From a virus: a stretch of 64,000 bases of DNA. The notes beneath the pieces are model-generated. The model ran no database searches. It saw only the letters and a program-made list of their open reading frames with translations, and had not been told where the DNA came from. The position numbers and the translations under genes were made by a program. The stretch is taken from positions 67,992-131,991 of IMG/VR virus record IMGVR_UViG_3300015024_000001; one strand, 5' to 3'. Positions 21,554-63,541 of the stretch are shown in pieces; positions within the stretch are counted from its first letter, which is position 1, and every line of letters begins with the position of its first letter.

Positions 21554-22165
21554 GTGTTTTTTTATTGGGACAAAACTATGATTTTTAAACTAATGTCCGT
21601 AGTAGAGTTAAAAGCTCTATATCAAAAAATACAAAAACCTATTACTGTAAGATTTCCAAAGAATGATAAGCAGACTTTTCTATTCTGTAGTCTTGCTTAC
21701 TATTCTACACCTAAATCAATCACTTTATATAATGAGTACAAGTGTGTAGAAACAACCGTAATAGAGTTGTTAGTAGGTATTACATGGGAAAATTATGTAA
21801 TCCATAGACTGACGGATGAGCAAGGCTATGATTTAGCTGTACAACTACTTGGTTGTTATATCAGTACAGATGAACCATTATCCGAAGCACAAGATACTTT
21901 TGTTTACTTATTAAGTTTAGTTATTGAAGACTACGAATCTCAACACTATCCTATTGCTTCTCTTTCTACGTTGAAGTTTATAGACCAGTTGCTAGAAGAT
22001 AGAGATCAAAATTGATTACATATTAGAGCTTGCTTAGATTATCCTGAGTTTGTAAAGTCTCAGTTTAATGTATCTTTGTATCTCAAAGTAGAGAATCTTA
22101 TTAAAGTTTCGCATTTCTTTCGTTTGCCTGTACAAGCATTTATAGTAGGTGGTTATAATGATTAA
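21554..22165 (+). pseudogene. HigA-like antitoxin/HTH protein with an in-frame TGA at 22013-22015
   Basis: LLSLVIEDYESQHYPI..QLLEDR before the stop; same frame continues ..LIKVSHFFRLPVQAFI. Confidence 0.55.
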
Positions 22166-22426
22166 TATACAAATTGTAGAGCTTATAAGTTATGGTGACT
22201 TTGACATGCCTATGACTGATTCTGTTTGGTATGGTGCAGAAACATTAGAAAAACCTAATGAGTTGAAGTTCTATAAAAACACAAATATAGAAGAAGCGCG
22301 TCAGTATCTTGTAGATTTGGGTTTTATATGTGTCCCTACTTTTAGATTTGAAATTGGTGGTGGAGTATAAGATTTTCTGTAATTATAATATTAACTAATA
22401 TACTATATTAAAGAAATGTTAATTAT

Positions 22427-22675
22427 TTGTGCTACAATTGTTGTTTAATTATCAACAGGATAAATTTAATGTCACATAAATCTGATGATACTGTTTTAGA
22501 AATTTTATTAGGTGCTGTTGTAATATTTGGGACACCTACTCTAGCAGGATGGGTCTTTATGTTACTGTGGAACTTTGCTCTAGTAGGATTGTTTCCATCA
22601 ATCCCTACGTTAGATTTTTGGCGTAGTGTTGGTTGTGTACTATTTCTTAGTTTTATTAGTAGTTTCTTTAGCTAC
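22427..22675 (+). CDS. small membrane protein; 3' end altered by the IS-derived insertion
   Basis: Two hydrophobic helices; the frame runs into the IS left end. Confidence 0.6.
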
Positions 22676-22744
22676 CAAGTGAAAGCCCCGCATTCTAACG
22701 GTACTCCGTTGAGTGACGGGATGTAAGCGCGTCCATCAAGGGGT

Positions 22745-22894
22745 TCAATGCCCCGTAGATGGACAGTCTTCTGGGGTATCTTGCTGCTCAATATATTTCT
22801 TGAGGATAGAAACAGTTACACCGCCACAAGAAGCGATGGAATATGACTCATTCCACAAAACACTTTTCCAGTAATGTTTTTTCACTTCATCGGC
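22745..22894 (-). pseudogene. tnpA: truncated IS200-type TnpA (C-terminal part only)
   Basis: LW..SY...S.GG.....KKYIEQQ motif; the HUH half is missing. Confidence 0.85.
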
Positions 22895-22949
22895 TTTATT
22901 AGCTTTAATTGTTGTATAATAAATACTATTAAAGCCAATAAAATAGACT

Positions 22950-23525
22950 ATGGATAAACACGTTAACGATTTACAGGTTTGCACTATTTGTAAAGTAGAG
23001 CAACCTCTTGAAAACTACTACAAATCTTCAAAAAGAAAAACTGGGTACTCAAATACTTGTAAGCAATGCTCTTTAATCTATGTAAAGAAACATAATGCTT
23101 CTGCTGAAGGGAAAGAGAAAAATACGGCTTGGAGGCATGTGGCAAAAAGTAAAAGACTATCCCAAGGATTTTGCTCTAAATGCGACAGAGAGAGAATGTC
23201 TCAAGATGCCCTATTTTGTAAATGGCATTGCGTTCAACACGCTTGCGGTAGCAGATTGGGTAAGGCAGATAAACTTACAGTGCAATTGCTATTAGATAGA
23301 CTAGAGTCTAATCCTATTTGCCCTTACACTGGGAAAACTTTAGTGCTAGGAATAAATACTCATTTAGACCATATCTTGCCAGTAAGTAGATTTCCAGAAT
23401 TTAAAAGCCAAGTGCTTAATGTTGAATGGATTTCTGCTAAGGCTAATTTATCAAAAGGAGATATGACAAAAGATGAGTTTATTGCTTTTTGTAAATTAGT
23501 TGTTAAATTTGCGGATAGTCAATAA
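22950..23525 (+). CDS. HNH endonuclease with N-terminal zinc-finger motifs
   Basis: CTIC..CKQC, CSKC..CKWH, CPYTG..HLDHILP..NVEWI...ANLSKG. Confidence 0.85.
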   Translation: MDKHVNDLQVCTICKVEQPLENYYKSSKRKTGYSNTCKQCSLIYVKKHNASAEGKEKNTAWRHVAKSKRLSQGFCSKCDRERMSQDALFCKWHCVQHACGSRLGKADKLTVQLLLDRLESNPICPYTGKTLVLGINTHLDHILPVSRFPEFKSQVLNVEWISAKANLSKGDMTKDEFIAFCKLVVKFADSQ

Positions 23526-23729
23526 AGCTCAGTGCGCTTCCGATGCAATAGCAGGATTAGCTGAGAAGCCCACCCTATACTCGTCCGCGAGTTAGGGATG
23601 GGAGTCGTCACAAAGTAATTATGGCATACATTGACAAGACACTACAGAAGATGATTGCTATTGCACATAGCAAACCACAGTTACCATTATTTCACGACAC
23701 ACATTTAATAACATTTAGGAGTATCCAAA

Positions 23730-24101
23730 ATGGACAACCCACAACAACAGCTTTTAAATAAGATTACCTCACTAAAAACTTACATAGAGTCATACAAGGA
23801 AACTATTGGAATCCACCTGGCAGATACAAAAGTACCACTTGAAGAACGCTGGTTAGTATACCAAGAACTACCTTCTTTTCTACGGAATAACGAATGTGAT
23901 CAACAGGACTTTCTTATAAAAAGTGATGGTTCTTTTATAGAACTTTGTGATGTTGGTGAATATTCTAAATATGAAATGATCGAAGTACACAGTTTTCTAC
24001 AAAACAAAGCAAAAAGTCTACTAGATCACAGTCTTGACATTGTAGCAACAAAAGAGTATATTCTAAAACACAATCTAGGTTCTTTCAAGAACGATTGGTA
24101 G
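23730..24101 (+). CDS. hypothetical protein
   Basis: AGGAG RBS, 123 aa. Confidence 0.7.
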   Translation: MDNPQQQLLNKITSLKTYIESYKETIGIHLADTKVPLEERWLVYQELPSFLRNNECDQQDFLIKSDGSFIELCDVGEYSKYEMIEVHSFLQNKAKSLLDHSLDIVATKEYILKHNLGSFKNDW

Positions 24102-24190
24102 CTATGTCATGTCTTCAAGAAATACAGCATATTGCTCAAACCGTTGTTCAATATGCTGCTATAATCAATGTACACTTTCAAGTATAATTA

Positions 24191-24547
24191 ATGATTTTAA
24201 ACACTATTGCATCGATTGTTTTAGGTATGTCTTCTGTTCAAGAACTACCACAGAAAATTACTTATAATAATTCTTGTGGACAGTCTACTTACTATGATAA
24301 CTGGTATGATGGACGCCAGACTAGCTCTGGTGAGATTTACTCACAGTATGGTATGACAGCAGCTTCACGTGACTATCCAAATGGTACTTGGTTGCGAGTT
24401 ACAAATCAACGTAACAACAAGACCGTAGAAATAAAAGTGAATGACACTGGTAATATGCCTTTTCTAGATTTATCAGAAGAAGCTGCGGTGAGACTAGGTT
24501 CAGATGGTTATCCTGACAATTACTCAATTTGTGTAGAGGTTTTATAA
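24191..24547 (+). CDS. RlpA-like double-psi beta-barrel (lytic transglycosylase-like) protein
   Basis: GRQTSSGEIY..MTAA..P.GT.LRVTN..N.KTV..KVND.G..LDLSEEAA. Confidence 0.85.
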   Translation: MILNTIASIVLGMSSVQELPQKITYNNSCGQSTYYDNWYDGRQTSSGEIYSQYGMTAASRDYPNGTWLRVTNQRNNKTVEIKVNDTGNMPFLDLSEEAAVRLGSDGYPDNYSICVEVL

Positions 24548-25488
24548 TGTTTTCTTATTTACAAGCAATCGCCCAAGCTAAAAAGAAAAATAATCTTGCT
24601 AGCAGTTATTTAATAAGTGGCACTGTCAACGCTACTCTTCTTGCACTGTTAGTAATTCCTAGCACAGTTTTTCTGAGCAATCTTCAATTTACTATTTTAG
24701 TATTAGAACTAATTGTAGTTGTTATCTCACTTCTTACAAATCTTTATATGGGAGAGATTCTTATTAAAGACACTGATAAGAAGAAGTATGGGGCTTTGAT
24801 TGCAGTGGTAGGTTTGCAGAGCTTCGTAAACAAATATTGGTTAGGCACTAGACTTTACTCTATTTTGTCGGTTGCTATAGTTACTGTAAATATGATTAGT
24901 ATTGGTTGGATTGGTCAAGCAGTATTTTTTATACTTGCAAGCGCTCTGACTATATCTACCTTATATAATTTCCTTGACCAGCTACCTGAGTTTGTTGCTA
25001 AATTAAATATAAACGAAGATGATATTACGGTGTAATTATGCCTCTACTAAATCCTGAAGAAGACCAACCCGAACGACCTAGATATTTAGGTGAATTATCA
25101 ACAAAACTTCCTGCTGGTGCTACGTTTAAACAAGCCTCTGAACATATGCTAACGTGTCAACATATAGATACGTTGACATTAACAGAGGTACGCACTGTAG
25201 CAAAGGCGTTAAGCGCCCTCTATGTTGGTATGCAAGTTACTGTATCAGCTATGTCCAAACAAGATTTTTCTTTTCCTACAAATATTGACGGAGTATAAGA
25301 TGACTAAACAACAACTTTCTTTCTATGTTGCTTGTGTTGCACTAGCTTTTGGTGTGTTCTTCTTTGTAGTTGGTGGATGGTCAATTGGACAAATTGTACC
25401 ACAGTTTATTGAAAATGCTAATATTGCACAAATCAAAGGTTTGTTGTGCCTCATTGTAGCTGCTGTTCTATATACAAATACAAAATAA
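24547..25488 (+). CDS. three small genes, two of them membrane proteins (24547-25035, 25038-25298, 25300-25488)
   Basis: Tightly packed ORFs with hydrophobic helices. Confidence 0.55.
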
Positions 25489-36388: not shown

Positions 36389-36506
36389 ATAAAGTATTTA
36401 AAAACTACAAAGAGCATCCAGTTTTAAAGTATGACGACCCTAAGCTCATATTTAAAATAGATGCTAAAGTGTATATAATCAAAAATGGTCTCGTCAATCA
36501 GATTAT
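36385..36506 (+). pseudogene. small gene interrupted by the IS605 element; continues at 38183
   Basis: Removing the IS gives ..NQI-I-GYERLTNTSV* in frame. Confidence 0.5.
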
Positions 36507-36535
36507 CGGAGAAATGGGTTTAAAACCCCGTGCTT

Positions 36536-36937
36536 CTAGCACGGCTTTTCTTGATTCTGAATGTACTGTTTGAGTATCTCTAAAGGCGCGCCGCCAATAG
36601 AAGACGCAAAATAACTAGGACTCCATAAAGCATCTTTACCATAAGGCTTAGGATGACCAGCTTGACCGTATTTTCGGCTTGAGACACCTTTTAAAGCGTT
36701 AACTATTTGAGATACGGATAGTTTAGGCGGGTACTCAATCAAAGCGTGAATATGATCTGATTCACCATTAAATTCCTGTACCTGAAAATTCATTTTTGTT
36801 GATACTTCTCTGAATGATTTTTCAATCACTGCCAAACTCTCAAGCGTAAAGATTTTACACCTATATTTTGCAACACAGACCAAATGCATTTTAAGGTCAG
36901 AGACACTATGCCTCTCTTTACGTAAACAGGTTGTCAT
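36536..36937 (-). CDS. tnpA: IS200/IS605 Y1 transposase
   Basis: HLVCVAKYR, DHIH, LKGVSS, LWSPSYF, QYIQNQ. Confidence 0.95.
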   Translation of the reverse strand: MTTCLRKERHSVSDLKMHLVCVAKYRCKIFTLESLAVIEKSFREVSTKMNFQVQEFNGESDHIHALIEYPPKLSVSQIVNALKGVSSRKYGQAGHPKPYGKDALWSPSYFASSIGGAPLEILKQYIQNQEKPC

Positions 36938-36988
36938 TCTAAGCAGACCAATGTATAATAAACCTACAGACCAATTTTAGCATAAGCA

Positions 36989-38173
36989 ATGAAAGCTAGG
37001 TATCAATACAGATTTTACCCAACTAACCAACAGCAAAAGAGCCTAGCTCAATTGTTTGGCTGTGTTCGCGTGGTCTGGAATGATGCTTTAGCACTTTGCA
37101 AGGCTTCTGCTAAGGCAATTGGTTTTAACAAACTTTCAGCTATGCTTACTCAGTCTAAAAAGACTGAAGAGAGGCAGTGGCTTAAAGATGTATCGTCTGT
37201 ACCGTTGCAGCAATCCCTAAGATATTTAGATGTCGCTTATCGCAACTTTTTTAATTCTCTAAAAGGAAAGCGAAAAGGTAGAAAAGTTGGTTCGCCAAAA
37301 TTCAAGAGAAAAACTAATAATCAATCTGCTGAGTTTACCAAAGCAGCATTTTCTCTTTCTAAAGATGGTGTTTATTTAGCCAAGATAGGAGATATCAAGC
37401 CAGTATGGTCTAGGAAATTACCGTCAGAGCCTAGCTCTGTAACGGTAATTAAAGATTGTGCTAACCGATATTTTCTTAGCTTTGTAGTGGATATAGAGCC
37501 AGAGCATATTGAACCGATTAATCCATCGGTAGGGATCGATCTAGGGATCAAAACTTTTGCTGTACTCAGTACTGGCGAAAAGTTTCAAAGCCCTGATTAC
37601 TCCAAATTGGATAAGAAGGTCAGGAAGTTGCAACGTAAGCTAGCAAAGCAATCTAAAGGCTCTAACAGACGGCACAAAACCCGACTGAGAATCGCCAAAA
37701 AACATAACAAGATTTCTGATACTCGCAACGACTTTCTGCATAAAGTTTCTACTGAAGTGGTACGCAAAAACCAAGCAATCACTTTAGAAGACCTCAATGT
37801 TTCTGGCATGGTCAAAAATCGCAAACTTGCACGGGCAATTAGTCAGCAAGGATGGAGAGAGTTTAGAACTCTTTGCGAAGCCAAATCTGAAAAGTATGGC
37901 AGAACTTTTTCAACGGTTAGCCGTTGGGAACCTACCAGTCAAATTTGCTCAGATTGCGGATATCAATGGGGTAAATTAAATCTTAGTGTTAGATCTGTCA
38001 CTTGCATAAATTGTGGAGCTATCCATGATCGTGATGAGAATGCAGCTAAAAATATAGATAAAGTCGGGATAGGGAACTGCCACGACTCTAAACGAACGCG
38101 GAGAGATAATAAGACTACTTCGGTAGCGAATCTCAGTGATGCGTTAAGAATTACCGCTGCTTCAGCTCGGTGA
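36989..38173 (+). CDS. tnpB: RNA-guided endonuclease TnpB
   Basis: YRFYPT HTH, GIDLG, LEDL, CSDC..CINC zinc finger, DRDENAAKNI; RuvC D-E-D intact. Confidence 0.95.
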   Translation: MKARYQYRFYPTNQQQKSLAQLFGCVRVVWNDALALCKASAKAIGFNKLSAMLTQSKKTEERQWLKDVSSVPLQQSLRYLDVAYRNFFNSLKGKRKGRKVGSPKFKRKTNNQSAEFTKAAFSLSKDGVYLAKIGDIKPVWSRKLPSEPSSVTVIKDCANRYFLSFVVDIEPEHIEPINPSVGIDLGIKTFAVLSTGEKFQSPDYSKLDKKVRKLQRKLAKQSKGSNRRHKTRLRIAKKHNKISDTRNDFLHKVSTEVVRKNQAITLEDLNVSGMVKNRKLARAISQQGWREFRTLCEAKSEKYGRTFSTVSRWEPTSQICSDCGYQWGKLNLSVRSVTCINCGAIHDRDENAAKNIDKVGIGNCHDSKRTRRDNKTTSVANLSDALRITAASAR

Positions 38174-38267
38174 GTGTTTCAATGGCTACGAAAGATTAAC
38201 TAATACGTCTGTCTGAAGACATAAAACTACAGCTTACACAATATTACACAACAATACATATAAAATT

Positions 38268-58410: not shown

Positions 58411-61158
58411 ATGACTTTCAATTTCCCTTCTAACACAGCTAATCCTACATTTTTCCGTACTTATAGCCGCTTAAAAGAAGACCTTAAAACAAAAGAATCT
58501 GTCAACGAAGTATTTGAGCGTGGTTTAGATGGTTTGTTTAAGCTTGGTTCTTATACAGATGAAGAACAAGAATTGATTCGTACCAATCTTTACTCTCTAC
58601 ATACACTATTTAGTGGTCGTTGGATGTGGGTTGGTGGTATGCCTTTCTTAGAGAAGGAAAAGAACTACTATGCATCTTATAACTGTATTGGTATGTCAAC
58701 AGAAGGTTTAGCTGATTTTGGTAGATGTTTCAATTTGTTGATGCAAGGTTGTGGTGTTGGTGCTTCTATTACTAAACCAGAATTAGAAAAACTACCACCT
58801 ATTATTACAGGTGTTACTTTATTAAATATCACTGACCAAGAAGATATTGGCTCACGTAGAGAGAATGTACAAGACCATACCTATTTTTATAATGGTACTT
58901 TGTATGTAGGAGATTCGCGTGAAGCTTGGGTTGATGCTATTTTATTTATTTTAAAACTCTTTACAACACATGGTGAATGGGATATTTTTATTGATCTTAA
59001 GAGTCCACGTAAAGCAGGGACACCAATTAAAGGTTTTGGTGGTGTTGCTAATCCAACAGATCTTCGCCAGTTATTCCTTGACACTATTGAGATGTTGAAC
59101 TCTTACGTATACCGTGAATGGGATAGTTTTCTTGCAGCTTGGTTGTATGCTCGTGTAGCTAAGTGTACGGTCGCTGGGAACGTCCGTAGATCTGCCGAAC
59201 TTATGCAAGGCTCAGAAGATGATCCTATATTTACTGAAATGAAAACAGGAATGTGGCAACAAACACCTGAAGGTAAGTGGTCTATTGATCCTAAGAAAGA
59301 CCCTCTTAGAATGGCTAATCACAGCCGCATGTTTTTCCACAAACCTTCTTATGAAGAGTTAGAGAGTGCAGTTCGTAAACAATATTACTCTGGTGAAGGT
59401 GCTATTGCTTATGCACCAATGGCAATTATCAGATGTAATGTTGACCTCTTAGATACAGATGGTAAACAAAATTACTTCCATGCTTTGTATCTATGTGATC
59501 CTGAGAAAGCTCTTGATTATCTGTCAGAACTTGCTGCATTAAAAGGGTTAATTCTTACACCAGAAGAACTTGAACATAGGATAGGAAGATGGAGAGCCAA
59601 TCCTTGTTTTGTTGCTGACACTTTAATTACAACTAGAGATGGTCAGTTTCCTATTGTTGATCTTGTAGGTAAAGAAGTTGACATTTGGGACGGAGATCAA
59701 TGGGTAACTATTGATAACTTCCGAGTGACAGGTGAAAACCAACAAGTCTATACTATTACCTTAAAATCAGGTGATAAAATCACAGCAACACCTCACCACA
59801 CATTCATTCTTGAATCTTGTTTTGTAGCTAAACTATACGACTTGAAGATTGGTGATAGACTTATTACTCATAATAAAGGTAAGAGGATGTTACCAGAATT
59901 GGGTTGGAATCAGATTGTCAGTATTGAGGATTCTGGCATTGTTGACAAGGTTTACTGTTGTACAGTTCCTACTAATAACAGAGTCTCATTAACCTGTGGT
60001 ATTATTACTGGACAGTGTGTTGAAGTTCTTGGTAAAGACTTCCTCTGCAACCTTGCGGAGATTCACTTGAATCAACTAGACCCTTTGAACCGACAACAGC
60101 AAAAAGAAGCTTTTCGTGCTGGTGGTTTGATTACAGCTTCGTTATTGGCACATCAGTTTGACGACGAAAAATTCCGCTACAGTCGTGAGATCGACCCTAT
60201 CGTTGGTGTATCTTTCACAGGTTTGTTTGACTTCTTTGTGAATCTATTCGGTGCTGATTGGTTGAAATGGTGGCAAGCGGGTCGTCCAGAAGAATGGATT
60301 ACACCTAATTCAGAACAACTACAAAAAGTCTGGTTTGTTACTGACTGTTATCCTGAAGAGGTATCTTATGGTAATATTTATCGTAGAATCGAAAAGATAT
60401 ATTTGTCATTCTGGCGCAACTGTGCAATGAACGCAGTTTGGGAATATTGTGACCGCAATGGTTTAAGACGACCTAATCGTATAACCGTTGTACAGCCAGC
60501 AGGAACAAAGTCTCTGTTGACAGGTGCTTCTTGTGGTTATCATCCTCCAAAAGCTTCACGTTATATTAGACGTATTACCTTTGCTAAGAATGATCCTATC
60601 GCTCTTGCTTGTATTGACTATGGTTATTCTGTTGTACCATCACAATCTGATAAAGATGTTAATGGACATCTACTAGATGATCCGTTTGATCCCCGTTGTA
60701 CCGAATGGTTGGTGGAGATCCCTATAGAAGTTCCTTGGGCAAATATTGCAGATGAAGCACAGTTAGACCCTAACCAGTTTTCTGCTGTAGCACAGTTTGA
60801 CTTCTTTATGCAAGTACAGACTTACTATACTCAGCATAATACGTCTTCAACTATTGAACTCCGAGAACATGAGATTCCAGAACTTGCGCAGGCAATCCAC
60901 ACAGCAATTCAAACTAATCAACCCTACTTTTCTACGGCTCTTTTGTCTAGATTTGACTCGTTTGAATCATTTCCACGATTACCTTTTGAACCTGTATCAC
61001 AAGAGAAGTATAATGAGTTGGTCTCTAGTGTCCTTGCCAGACGCAAATCTGAAGACTTTCATGCTCTGATGTCACAGTACCAGAAGGGTGTTGAGTTTGA
61101 GGACGACCGCGGCTCTGTAGCTTGTGAGTCTGAGGTATGCTTTATAGTTAGAAAATAA
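58411..61158 (+). CDS. nrdJ: class II (B12-dependent) ribonucleotide reductase with intein
   Basis: FFRTYSR, SGRWMWVGG, YNC, LLMQGCGVG, VAGNVRRSA, NP|CVE, CNLAE, VQPAGTKSLL, C-terminal ACESEVC. Confidence 0.93.
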   Translation: MTFNFPSNTANPTFFRTYSRLKEDLKTKESVNEVFERGLDGLFKLGSYTDEEQELIRTNLYSLHTLFSGRWMWVGGMPFLEKEKNYYASYNCIGMSTEGLADFGRCFNLLMQGCGVGASITKPELEKLPPIITGVTLLNITDQEDIGSRRENVQDHTYFYNGTLYVGDSREAWVDAILFILKLFTTHGEWDIFIDLKSPRKAGTPIKGFGGVANPTDLRQLFLDTIEMLNSYVYREWDSFLAAWLYARVAKCTVAGNVRRSAELMQGSEDDPIFTEMKTGMWQQTPEGKWSIDPKKDPLRMANHSRMFFHKPSYEELESAVRKQYYSGEGAIAYAPMAIIRCNVDLLDTDGKQNYFHALYLCDPEKALDYLSELAALKGLILTPEELEHRIGRWRANPCFVADTLITTRDGQFPIVDLVGKEVDIWDGDQWVTIDNFRVTGENQQVYTITLKSGDKITATPHHTFILESCFVAKLYDLKIGDRLITHNKGKRMLPELGWNQIVSIEDSGIVDKVYCCTVPTNNRVSLTCGIITGQCVEVLGKDFLCNLAEIHLNQLDPLNRQQQKEAFRAGGLITASLLAHQFDDEKFRYSREIDPIVGVSFTGLFDFFVNLFGADWLKWWQAGRPEEWITPNSEQLQKVWFVTDCYPEEVSYGNIYRRIEKIYLSFWRNCAMNAVWEYCDRNGLRRPNRITVVQPAGTKSLLTGASCGYHPPKASRYIRRITFAKNDPIALACIDYGYSVVPSQSDKDVNGHLLDDPFDPRCTEWLVEIPIEVPWANIADEAQLDPNQFSAVAQFDFFMQVQTYYTQHNTSSTIELREHEIPELAQAIHTAIQTNQPYFSTALLSRFDSFESFPRLPFEPVSQEKYNELVSSVLARRKSEDFHALMSQYQKGVEFEDDRGSVACESEVCFIVRK
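59605..60015 (+). mobile_element. 137-aa mini-intein at the NP|C active site of NrdJ
   Basis: Starts CFVADTLITT, block B ATPHHTF, ends VYC..IITGQ followed by Cys+1; no endonuclease domain. Confidence 0.9.
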
Positions 61159-61422
61159 AAATGCGTATAATAAAAGCTCGATATTTGACTGGTGTTGTTA
61201 TTGATCTTAAAGATTCTATGGAGTCTTTAAAGTGGTTAATAAATAACAGAATTTATTTATCGAGTTTTTATTATGAAAATATAAACATAGAAGAGGAATA
61301 CTTATGACTTCCGTATTACAAGATTGGGTTCAAGATTTGACAAAAAACAATACGAGAAGCCGACAAGCTCTGCACTTTAGTGCTGAGTAGAGGCGAACGG
61401 CGGTTTCAACCGCCAGTAGATA

Positions 61423-61824
61423 TTAGCTGTGATGTGGGTCTTCAATATATTTTTTGATTACGGCAGAGCTAACATTGCCAGCACTAGAAACAAAATAAGA
61501 CCTAGACCATAGACTAGGCAGTTTTAGAAGCTCTGGAAATTCCTTCCTTAGATAGTAAGAGCTTCTACCCTTAAAAGCCTTTATGACTAGGTGAGGGGCT
61601 TCTGTTGGAGGTACTGAAACGAATAAGTGGATATGGTCTGGAGCTATCTCAAGAGCTAAAATATCCCACCCATTCTCAACCGCTAAGGTATGGAATATTT
61701 CAGCAGCCCGTCTAGCCACGCCATTAACCAAAACCTTCTTCCTTCTTTTAGGACACCAGACAAAATGCAGATTTAATAAATACTTGCAATGATGTCCACT
61801 TTTATAGTCAGATTCTTTTAACAT
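61423..61824 (-). CDS. tnpA: IS200/IS605 Y1 transposase
   Basis: HFVWCPKRR, PDHIH, FKGRSS, LWSRSYF, KKYIE. Confidence 0.95.
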   Translation of the reverse strand: MLKESDYKSGHHCKYLLNLHFVWCPKRRKKVLVNGVARRAAEIFHTLAVENGWDILALEIAPDHIHLFVSVPPTEAPHLVIKAFKGRSSYYLRKEFPELLKLPSLWSRSYFVSSAGNVSSAVIKKYIEDPHHS

Positions 61825-61886
61825 AGATTGTCGTTTGTGTTCTACTTATCGACAATCTATGTTATCATATAACCTATACGGTACAA

Positions 61887-63134
61887 GTGAAACCAATGTA
61901 TGGATGTCAGCAAATATTAATTAGTCCAGACAAAGATTTAAGAGCGATCTTAGAATTTGTTTGTGAGCAATCAAATAAGCTTGCGAACTGCGGAACTTAC
62001 TATGCAAGGCAATTGTATTTTAAGACTGGAAGACTTCCTACGAAATACGATTTGCATAAACTACTTAAAGGTAATCCACATTTTCAAGCTTTGTACTCCC
62101 ATGTTGCACAGCAAACCTTAACCAGTGTCGCAGAGTCGTTTAAGTCCTTTAAGGAACTATCGAAGCTATTCAAATCTGGCAAGTTAGCCAACAAGCCTAG
62201 ACTTCCTCAGTACAAGAAAAATAGCCTTAAATTAGCTACTTTCCCAAAAGCTGATGTAAAGCTAAAAGATGGATTATTACGCTTACCACTTGGCTCTAAG
62301 GTTAAGGCGTGGTTTGGATTAGATGCTTTCTATCTGCCAATGCCAAGCAATCTCAACTTTGCAGATATTAAAGAAATTCGTATTTTGCCCCGTAACCGAT
62401 GCTTCTATGCTGAGTTTATCTACAAGTTAGAAGTTAAGAAACCCGTCTTAGATCCTGCTAAAGCGCTTGGCATAGATCACGGAATCAATAACTGGTTAAC
62501 TTGCATTTCTAATGTTGGAACTAGCTTTATTGTTGATGGCAAGTGGTTAAAATCTGCTAATCAGTGGTACAACAAATCAGTTTCTACCATCAAAGAAAAT
62601 AAGCCTAACGGATTCTGGTCAAACCGCTTGGCTAGGATTACAGAAAAGCGTAACCGACAAATGCGCGATGCTGTAAATAAAGCGGCTCGTATTGTGGTTA
62701 ACCATTGTCTGAATAATGGCATTGGCAAGATCGTTTTTGGTTGGAATATCGGTCAAAAAGATTCTGCCAATATGGGAGCAAAAACTAATCAAAAGTTTGT
62801 CCAAATTCCTACCGCTAAGCTCAAAGAACGAATTAAACAACTGTGCGAACTCTATGGAATTGAGTTCATAGAAACTGAAGAAAGTTATACTTCCAAGTCT
62901 TCGTTTGTGGATAGAGACTATTTACCTACTATTGGTGCAAAACCCGATGGGTGGAAAGAATCTGGCAGACGGGTTAAGCGTGGTTTGTATCGCACTGGTT
63001 CGCTTAATTGGTACATCAACGCAGACTGTAATGGTGCTGCAAATATACTCAGAAAAGTAGCGACAATATTAGGGCTTTGCCTTAATGGAGTTGGTAGAGG
63101 GACTTTGGCAGCCCCTCAGAGAATTAAAGTTTAA
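61887..63134 (+). CDS. tnpB: TnpB family protein
   Basis: GIDHG, EESYTSK, INADCNGAANI. The usual RuvC-II Glu position reads IVFGWN and the zinc finger is absent; nuclease activity is uncertain. Confidence 0.9.
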   Translation: MKPMYGCQQILISPDKDLRAILEFVCEQSNKLANCGTYYARQLYFKTGRLPTKYDLHKLLKGNPHFQALYSHVAQQTLTSVAESFKSFKELSKLFKSGKLANKPRLPQYKKNSLKLATFPKADVKLKDGLLRLPLGSKVKAWFGLDAFYLPMPSNLNFADIKEIRILPRNRCFYAEFIYKLEVKKPVLDPAKALGIDHGINNWLTCISNVGTSFIVDGKWLKSANQWYNKSVSTIKENKPNGFWSNRLARITEKRNRQMRDAVNKAARIVVNHCLNNGIGKIVFGWNIGQKDSANMGAKTNQKFVQIPTAKLKERIKQLCELYGIEFIETEESYTSKSSFVDRDYLPTIGAKPDGWKESGRRVKRGLYRTGSLNWYINADCNGAANILRKVATILGLCLNGVGRGTLAAPQRIKV

Positions 63135-63445
63135 TTACTCTGGAATCTCAGTCGCTTCAGCGCTGAGAGTGTCAAAAAGAAGTTTATATATACCTGTGGC
63201 AAGAAATTTGATCTTGAAGGTAGGCATATATCTGATTTCCCTTGTTACACCTTGCGAGAAAGCCTGGAAGAGTATGAGGAGGTAGAAAAGCGCGATCGCC
63301 TAATCTCAAAAATCAAGCTAATTACTCAGTCTCATGGCTTTGGCGAGAAACTGGCAACTGAGCATTTAGAGGCGATCGTTTTTAAATTAATGGAGGCTCA
63401 AAATGTCAACTAAATTAGCTTTGTTTGATTGGAGTGCATTAAGCG

Positions 63446-63541
63446 TTGAAACACTCACCGAGCTGAAGCAGCGGTGATTCTTAACGCATCACTGAGATTC
63501 GCTACCGAAGTAGTCTTATTATCTCTCCGCGTTCGTTTAGA
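63446..63541 (-). repeat. inverted 96-bp copy of the omegaRNA/right end of the 36507-38182 IS
   Basis: Reverse complement of 38087-38182 with one mismatch. Confidence 0.93.

Follow-up and report, generated by a model that had tools for sequence, protein, structure and literature searches.

A 64,000-nucleotide (nt) stretch of a viral genome, positions 67,992 to 131,991 of the IMG/VR record IMGVR_UViG_3300015024_000001 (hereafter the window), contains a 940-nt dead, non-autonomous insertion sequence (IS) of the IS200/IS605 type, which lies inside the end of a small phage gene and carries an intact gene for an HNH endonuclease. We think it probable that a selfish, homing-type HNH cassette invaded the tnpB gene of this transposon, which then would have decayed to a shell that a TnpA transposase could move in trans. 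This reading is favored because the HNH lineage occupies one and the same seam of diverged tnpB genes, the first hairpin of their 3′ RNA module, in three unrelated lineages of IS605, IS1341 and IS607 elements and in both orientations; because near-identical occupied and empty alleles exist, one pair of them at an orthologous site; because the cassettes seem, from their sequences, to carry a stretch of the previous host's seam; and because the catalytic core of the nuclease is intact. Coordinates are those of the window, and features lie on the plus strand unless stated otherwise.

The borders were read from Logan contigs of four sequencing runs, compared over 21800–24600; such contigs cannot show absence. 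In a 1557-nt contig of run X1, from a close relative of the phage, 21800–22671 is joined directly to 23612–24031 with 940 nt skipped. The element therefore spans 22672–23611, right after the motif TTTAG, with the terminal letters CT and AC and without a target duplication. Beyond 23611 the sequence differs among contigs, which fixes the right end. An earlier note on this DNA had placed the element at 22676–23611; its right border holds, and the left one shifts to 22672. That a relative of the phage has the exact empty site shows an insertion or excision by the IS605 route, either of the 940-nt unit or of its full-length parent. Both the element and its HNH gene are single-copy within the 131,991-bp virus record, and GC-richer patches at about 22650–22850 and 23500–23650 mark the element in the AT-rich window. 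None of the GenBank phage records resembled 22400–23900, and the flanking phage genes, used as queries, found no related phage among viral contigs; the empty site came from the sequencing-run contigs.

Matching subterminal hairpins are a hallmark of IS200/IS605 ends. The left-end (LE) hairpin (22687–22720), identified by single-strand folding, and the right-end (RE) hairpin (23569–23602) share one dot-bracket shape of 4 bp, a bulged A, 5 bp, an unpaired T, 5 bp and a 4-nt loop, with folding z-scores of −2.5 and −2.75, respectively. A second left-end hairpin found by folding (22731–22764) overlaps the tnpA stop codon. The imperfect hairpins are thus subterminal at both ends, terminal inverted repeats are lacking, and the insertion lies 3′ of a short motif without duplication. 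The left end aligns with those of L124, a cyanobacterial genome locus with an uninterrupted tnpB of 409 amino acids (aa), and of the gene-less miniature L126. The LE hairpin is conserved in both, window 22710–22765 is 86% identical to L124, and the TTTAG motif that abuts the left border (22667–22671) also stands left of LE in both alignments. It would be the transposon-adjacent motif, provided that some cognate TnpB used the RNA of the 940-nt element. The miniature itself (L126:991-1425) belongs to the same IS family and has its left end about 280 nt from its right-end RNA module.

The form from which the element derives is preserved in related contigs. A 3046-nt contig (X4 record 15), which matches 22667–22894 and 23511–23611 and has 1461 other letters between them, is the intact parent IS. 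Contigs of run X7 have identical breakpoints. Together they show that a 616-nt HNH cassette (22895–23510) stands where the parent has the 5′ part of tnpA, a spacer and nearly all of tnpB, 1461 nt in total. To the left of the cassette, the last 49 codons and stop of a Y1 HUH transposase gene remain on the minus strand (22745–22894); this stump matches positions 76–121 of the 121 positions of Pfam Y1_Tnp (E 9.5e-10), the parent contig runs on past 22894, and no intact TnpA is encoded in the element. Nor is a RuvC-like TnpB, since just the last 101 nt of tnpB are left. That segment (23511–23611), comprising the tnpB 3′ end, the right end and most of an omegaRNA-type module, shares 91% identity over its 101 nt with the uninterrupted tnpB of L124. 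For the part after the HNH stop codon (TAA), identity to tnpB genes annotated on plasmids of Chondrocystis and Oscillatoria, over their final ~60 nt, is 78–81%. Homology to tnpB begins at 23511, so the last 15 nt of the HNH open reading frame (ORF), four codons and the stop, come from tnpB and are read in another frame. The element belongs to a cyanobacterial IS200/IS605 family that includes an annotated ISSoc10-type orfB. Four parts that the earlier note had recognized, namely the left end, the tnpA 3′ remnant, the intact 191-aa HNH gene and the tnpB 3′ end and right end after its TAA, are all real.

The HNH gene (22950–23525) encodes 191 aa. Its product has two CxxC pairs near the N-terminus, and the HNH domain at its C-terminus has a Cas9-like fold. 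The four cysteines of these pairs, further cysteines and the core CPYTG...DH...N...N are common to 24 aligned relatives, and the window protein keeps every invariant column, including D140, H141, N157 and N166. By sequence and predicted fold, the ββα-metal catalytic core is intact. Pfam HNH_4 scored 16.8 bits, below its 22-bit cut-off, and residues 9–186 matched phrog_1035, annotated as endonuclease VII, with an E-value of 4.8e-22. A HMMER scan of 1.84 billion representatives returned 2363 relatives at E ≤ 0.001, of which 447 reached E ≤ 1e-10; most have 170–200 aa. AlphaFold (AF2) modeled the protein with a pLDDT of 95.3, and the best Foldseek matches in the PDB were isolated Cas9 HNH domains (5vgb_A, E 2.9e-4) with modest TM-scores of 0.32–0.44; the Gme HNH domain was also among the matches. 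A profile search of PDB sequences gave a weak pointer to Cas9 HNH (E 0.03). As the earlier note had remarked, no PLMP domain is visible: Pfam gave no PLMP or RRXRR match at E ≤ 0.1. The single HNH protein as query found no relative among viral contigs. Upstream of the ORF lie the tnpA stump and a 55-nt AT-rich leader. A TATAAT at 22915–22920 was read by eye; a simple promoter scan listed no plus-strand site before the HNH gene.

The closest relatives of the window HNH gene, members of the same lineage, were found at the homologous spot of tnpB genes that are about 35–40% identical to each other, and these fall into three groups. In the first, represented by Microcoleus locus L092, a 187-aa HNH gene stands between a 386-aa tnpB and a remainder that consists of the ~20 final TnpB codons plus the right end. 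The HNH protein is 52% identical to that of the window, and the tnpB is 85% identical to an uninterrupted Oscillatoria TnpB. L152, the orthologue of L092 in another genome, has the same neighbors and flanks that are 96.9% and 94.6% identical, with 8 nt in place of 615 nt. The Microcoleus cassette closes with its own complete first hairpin (H1), of the type found in tnpB-less miniatures.

The second group consists of IS607-type elements with a serine-recombinase tnpA, comprising L013 and eight metagenome loci (L095-L097, L100, L102/L103, L108 and L109). Here the tnpB stop overlaps the HNH start (ATGA), and the HNH ORF reads in frame across the TnpB tail and ends 14 nt short of the element end. 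An intact 226-aa ORF is kept, and the nine loci have eight different right flanks, which means that the HNH-bearing element has transposed. L157, compared with L096, is an HNH-free relative with an uninterrupted 412-aa TnpB. Another IS607-type tnpB without HNH, L156 (3590–3700), keeps 40 nt of the cassette right end and has a premature stop, which looks like the footprint of a cassette loss. In the third, Microcystis-type group (L094, L104, L105, L101 and L122), the HNH gene is antisense and follows directly after the VGH codons of tnpB; on the far side of the cassette the same ~14 nt occur again as an imperfect copy, with which tnpB continues up to its stop and the right end.

Near-identical alleles with and without HNH are therefore seen for L092 versus L152 and for L096 versus L157 and L156, and the window's own family has HNH-free alleles in the parent contig X4 and in L124. 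Deletion shells like that of the window arose at least twice more: L102/L103 keep TnpB residues 1–44, the HNH gene and the module, and Chlorogloea L093 keeps ~35 N-terminal TnpB codons, an antisense HNH gene and the module. The conclusion of the earlier note that TnpB had been replaced by an HNH nuclease describes the outcome correctly; judging from these relatives, the likely route was invasion of tnpB first and deletion afterwards. HNH invasion of an IS, one of three readings offered there, is supported by both the 616-nt cassette in place of 1461 nt and the occupation of the same seam in otherwise whole tnpB genes elsewhere.

A simpler explanation would be a one-off recombination scar, in which an ordinary phage HNH gene was joined to IS fragments with neither site preference nor mobility. 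The single-copy state of element and HNH gene in the record agrees with it, as does the outcome of direct HNH protein searches, which gave no close relative of the cassette in viral contigs and, from elsewhere, only a 115-aa fragment, 84% identical. We nevertheless regard a scar as very improbable, given the seam occupied in three unrelated tnpB lineages and both orientations, the near-identity of occupied and empty alleles, and the exact empty site of the element in a close phage relative.

To place the cassette within its family, we compiled a census from loci obtained by related-locus and genome searches. Among viral loci with HNH relatives, 78 of 79 had no tnpB or tnpA within ~2.5-kb flanks (tblastn), L013 being the exception. 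Among genome and metagenome loci, tnpB was linked to HNH in 14 of 27 (12 by tblastn, plus L093 and L108); some of the 13 unlinked loci lay in ordinary phage-like contexts. Unlinked relatives were found beside an AAA_25 gene (L099, L107) and beside a homing-endonuclease repeat (L098), and the neighbors of the other unlinked relatives had no Pfam match. Sensitive blastn with tnpB-tail queries revealed no hidden tails in L014, L016, L018, L098, L099, L106, L107, L110 or L118. For the phylogeny, HNH ORFs shorter than 120 aa and exact duplicates were left out, leaving 49 of 65 plus the window. In the resulting 49-row tree, all tnpB-linked HNH proteins fell into one 23-row subclade (SH-aLRT 86), together with nine rows that are not tnpB-linked, and each of the three groups formed a separate clade. 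The tnpB link is, on this tree, a trait of one sub-lineage in a mostly free-standing family.

The seam coincides with the start of a conserved RNA module. We aligned 31 sequences, namely the window, L092, 27 of 30 related loci, L010 and L011; L125, L140 and L144 were left out owing to large indels or divergence. The RNAalifold consensus has 25 pairs in four helices, corresponding to H1, outer H2, inner H2 and H3, with 96.6% of consensus cells paired compared to 83.1% in shuffles. Compensatory changes occur in 17 of the 25 pairs; all five H1 pairs covary, and six of the nine pairs of H3, which is the RE hairpin, are changed on both sides. The covariation score of 0.401 exceeds the 0.143 of shuffles, none of 500 shuffles reached it, and controls with the alignment slid gave at most 0.086. 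In 13 of the 29 aligned relatives, tnpB coding sequence is lacking upstream; their homology starts at H1, which is kept, indicating that the conserved module begins there. The covariation within a coding region, combined with known TnpB biology, suggests that the module acts as RNA, with putative boundaries. Apart from one sub-threshold match to AsdA, which is unrelated, Rfam had no match in the window region (E ≤ 1) or in eight related loci.

In the window, the cassette junction lies inside H1. The 3′ arm of H1 is left at about 23511–23518, its 5′ arm is gone and replaced by cassette sequence, and H2 (23528–23565) and H3 (23569–23602) are whole, so that the 3′ RNA module is incomplete. TnpB guides are taken from the flank after the right end; the corresponding position here, directly after the RE end, is 23612–23631, the guide predicted in the earlier note. 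The Microcoleus module differs in another way: at L092:3600-3612 one H2 pair reads C-C and another A-C, and the HNH-free orthologue L152 keeps standard pairs. The RNA module of L092 may be decaying after the invasion.

Module copies without tnpB in cyanobacterial genomes are of two types, one comprising L127, L130, L132, L137, L145, L146, L149 and L153, and the other L136, L148, L150 and L151. Between H1 and H2, tnpB-less copies have 5–7 extra alignment columns that match the last codons and stop of the Microcoleus HNH gene; such copies may be descendants of elements that bore HNH, or may themselves have donated the extra piece.

The juxtaposition of an HNH gene and this module raises the possibility, put forward in the earlier note as a new pairing of an HNH nuclease with a transposon guide RNA, that HNH became the effector of the remaining module: an RNA that begins at 23511 and uses the flank as its guide would target HNH to the empty site, in the manner of TnpB. 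The gene does abut the module, three independent derivatives (the window, L102/L103 and L093) keep HNH and module with tnpB deleted, the HNH domain is most like that of Cas9 by fold and weakly by profile, and the IS607-type HNH ORF continues in frame through the TnpB tail. Against these stand the size of the family, with its free-standing majority, and the 78 of 79 viral loci without tnpB or tnpA nearby; the group whose HNH gene is antisense to the module; the missing 5′ arm of H1 in the window and the mispaired H2 of L092; and the lack of a PLMP or RRXRR region. Moreover, HNH-less, tnpB-less miniatures with the module are common, and the 13 of 29 aligned relatives of this kind imply that retention of the module needs no HNH. 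We consider RNA guidance of the HNH protein extremely improbable, and the result for this idea is negative.

Returning to invasion by a homing-type cassette, we propose the following course. The parent IS would have had divergent tnpA and tnpB genes. Into this tnpB, a few codons past the RuvC-III motif and within the DNA that specifies H1 of the structured 3′ RNA module, a free-standing HNH cassette, apparently with its own promoter, would have inserted. Loss of nearly all of tnpB and of the tnpA 5′ part would have followed, or coincided with, this insertion, leaving LE, the tnpA stump, HNH, H2, H3 and RE. The HNH enzyme is envisaged as protein-guided: it would cut cassette-less tnpB alleles at or near H1 and be copied in by repair, with no guide RNA involved. 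The seam may be favored because protein and RNA module alike conserve its DNA sequence, and it may be the sole place where an insert spares both the RuvC core and the module. Since the shell keeps both TnpA hairpins, a cognate host TnpA could excise and insert it as a unit. Nuclease activity, target, homing and mobilization in trans are all inferred. The third reading of the earlier note, that a homing endonuclease moves via IS ends by TnpA in trans, is compatible with this course: an exact empty site exists and both hairpins are intact. The phage itself has no cognate TnpA.

Several observations weigh against this proposal. Junctions bear imperfect 12–25-nt copies of the target on both sides, a feature not expected from simple homing. 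The Microcystis-type HNH ORFs are N-terminally short (130–154 aa) and may be decaying. For the phage itself, no contig of the four runs covers 22928–23491, so its cassette comes from one assembled record, besides which the sole close match to the cassette HNH is the 115-aa fragment mentioned above, from elsewhere. The cassette is rare and not sweeping: only 4 of 401 sampled cyanobacterial genomes hold a relative at E ≤ 1e-10, and, of 51 viral loci that encode relatives of the IS607-type TnpB, only 1 has HNH. Three cyanobacterial genomes each hold one copy of HNH, and in its genome the invaded Microcoleus tnpB lacks a close paralogue, the nearest being 38% identical; spread between copies within a genome is thus not seen.

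Alternatively, HNH may be a useful accessory that cuts HNH-free IS copies, or competing phages that carry them, and so biases the inheritance of its own element or phage, as in marker exclusion when phages co-infect. The ORF of the HNH-bearing IS607-type element is intact (226 aa) at all eight of its different sites, its overlapping tnpB stop and HNH start suggest co-expression, and the phage has at least two other intact IS605 elements, pointing to heavy IS traffic. The present data fit plain selfish homing equally well, the low prevalence just described speaks against an accessory role, and the truncated ORFs of one group fit neutral decay better than selection. On balance, we judge an accessory function unlikely.

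The window is the 3′ half of the record, which is rated 95% complete. The gene disrupted by the element (22427–22671) encodes a small phage membrane protein (phrog_2169, E 4e-6; E 1e-5 when restricted to the part before the element), and the insertion has displaced the final codons of this gene; in the empty-site form, its stop would lie two codons past the junction. In-frame rejoining of the split gene was ruled out by the empty-site contig and because 940 is not a multiple of 3. The ORF downstream of the element had no PHROG match.

Several other IS605-type elements are present in the record. Two of them, at 36400–38220 and 61330–63180, are apparently intact, with pairs of divergent genes at 36536–38173 and 61423–63134 that encode TnpA proteins of 133 aa each and TnpB proteins of 394 and 415 aa. 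Further tnpB genes lie outside the window (G000:C1:24094 and both record ends), and all of the record's other tnpB genes belong to elements other than the 940-nt one. Mobilization by the phage's own two TnpAs is unlikely, as they are 47–50% identical to the tnpA remnant and the end folds of their elements are hairpins unlike those of the 940-nt element. At 63460–63513, an inverted second copy of the first element's tnpB 3′ end (38115–38168) differs at 1 of 54 nt; no tnpB adjoins it, and it is a stray right-end or guide-RNA fragment. A 915-aa ORF at 58411–61158 has matches to class II ribonucleotide reductase and, at residues 434–523, to an intein splicing domain. It is probably an intein-bearing ribonucleotide reductase gene, all matches being under the Pfam cut-offs.

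TnpB transposons are studied both for giving rise to Cas12 and for the guide RNA by which, as selfish elements, they persist in a genome. A protein-only nuclease gene found repeatedly at one tnpB seam means that these transposons have parasites of their own. The accessible text of the TnpB, IscB and IStron literature, including PMC6293099, PMC13565253 and PMC11610941, contains no description of a free-standing HNH gene nested in tnpB. The seam also serves as a natural experiment on the boundary of the 3′ RNA module, where ~600 nt can be inserted with the element still transposing. It opens to direct test the target of HNH, the dispensability of the TnpB C-terminal tail and first hairpin, and the movement of cargo shells by TnpA in trans. 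A bolder view, which we offer tentatively as possible though falling somewhat short of an even chance, is that the lineage is an active homing element that recognizes H1 DNA, a parasite specialized on the RNA-guided transposons of cyanobacteria and their phages. It would land so as to spare the TnpB core and RNA module, could bring its own copy of the hairpin, and would outlive tnpB in TnpA-moved shells, with the IS607-type group one frameshift from a TnpB-HNH fusion. If so, this near-fusion would be a living example of a RuvC nuclease acquiring a second, HNH, nuclease.

Among known systems, free-standing homing endonuclease genes of phages, such as the Seg and Mob genes of T-even phages ("intronless homing"), are similar in that a small self-contained nuclease gene, without intron or intein, sits at a conserved spot of a host gene, with near-identical alleles with and without it and with neighboring sequence that seems to travel along. 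Here, in contrast, the invaded gene itself codes for a selfish RNA-guided nuclease and is part of a transposon. The cassette sits at the seam where the tnpB frame meets a structured 3′ RNA module, short copies of the target are found at its junctions, and its cleavage activity is a predicted one. The element also resembles non-autonomous IS200/IS605 derivatives, the palindrome-associated miniatures, in its equal-shaped subterminal hairpins, its insertion 3′ of a motif without duplication and its gene-less relatives in the same family, such as L126. Complete elements of the IS605, IS608 and ISDra2 types have both tnpA and tnpB; the window shell has only stumps of the two and, unlike the miniatures, carries an intact HNH cargo.

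IscB and IshB proteins have an N-terminal PLMP/RRXRR region, and their omegaRNA is encoded upstream of the nuclease gene. Upstream of the window HNH gene, no omegaRNA was found, the tnpA stump and 55-nt leader having no Rfam match. According to the accessible text of PMC11610941, IshB is an HNH-only protein of ~180 aa in OMEGA systems. On that description, the window protein is alike in its ~190 aa, in an HNH domain with Cas9 HNH domains as best structure matches and in its location inside an IS200/IS605 element, and differs in lacking a PLMP/RRXRR match, in an N-terminus with two CxxC pairs and in that most of its relatives are free-standing phage genes. IStrons, as described in the available part of a preprint (bioRxiv 10.1101/2023.11.20.567912), are group I introns fused to IS605/IS607 elements that conflict with the 3′-end guide RNA. 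As far as that text goes, they share with the elements described here a second selfish element at the 3′ end of a TnpB transposon that collides with the guide-RNA region; the passenger here, by contrast, is a protein nuclease gene without ribozyme or intron, an insert of ~615 nt made up of a ~50-nt 5′ leader and an ORF.

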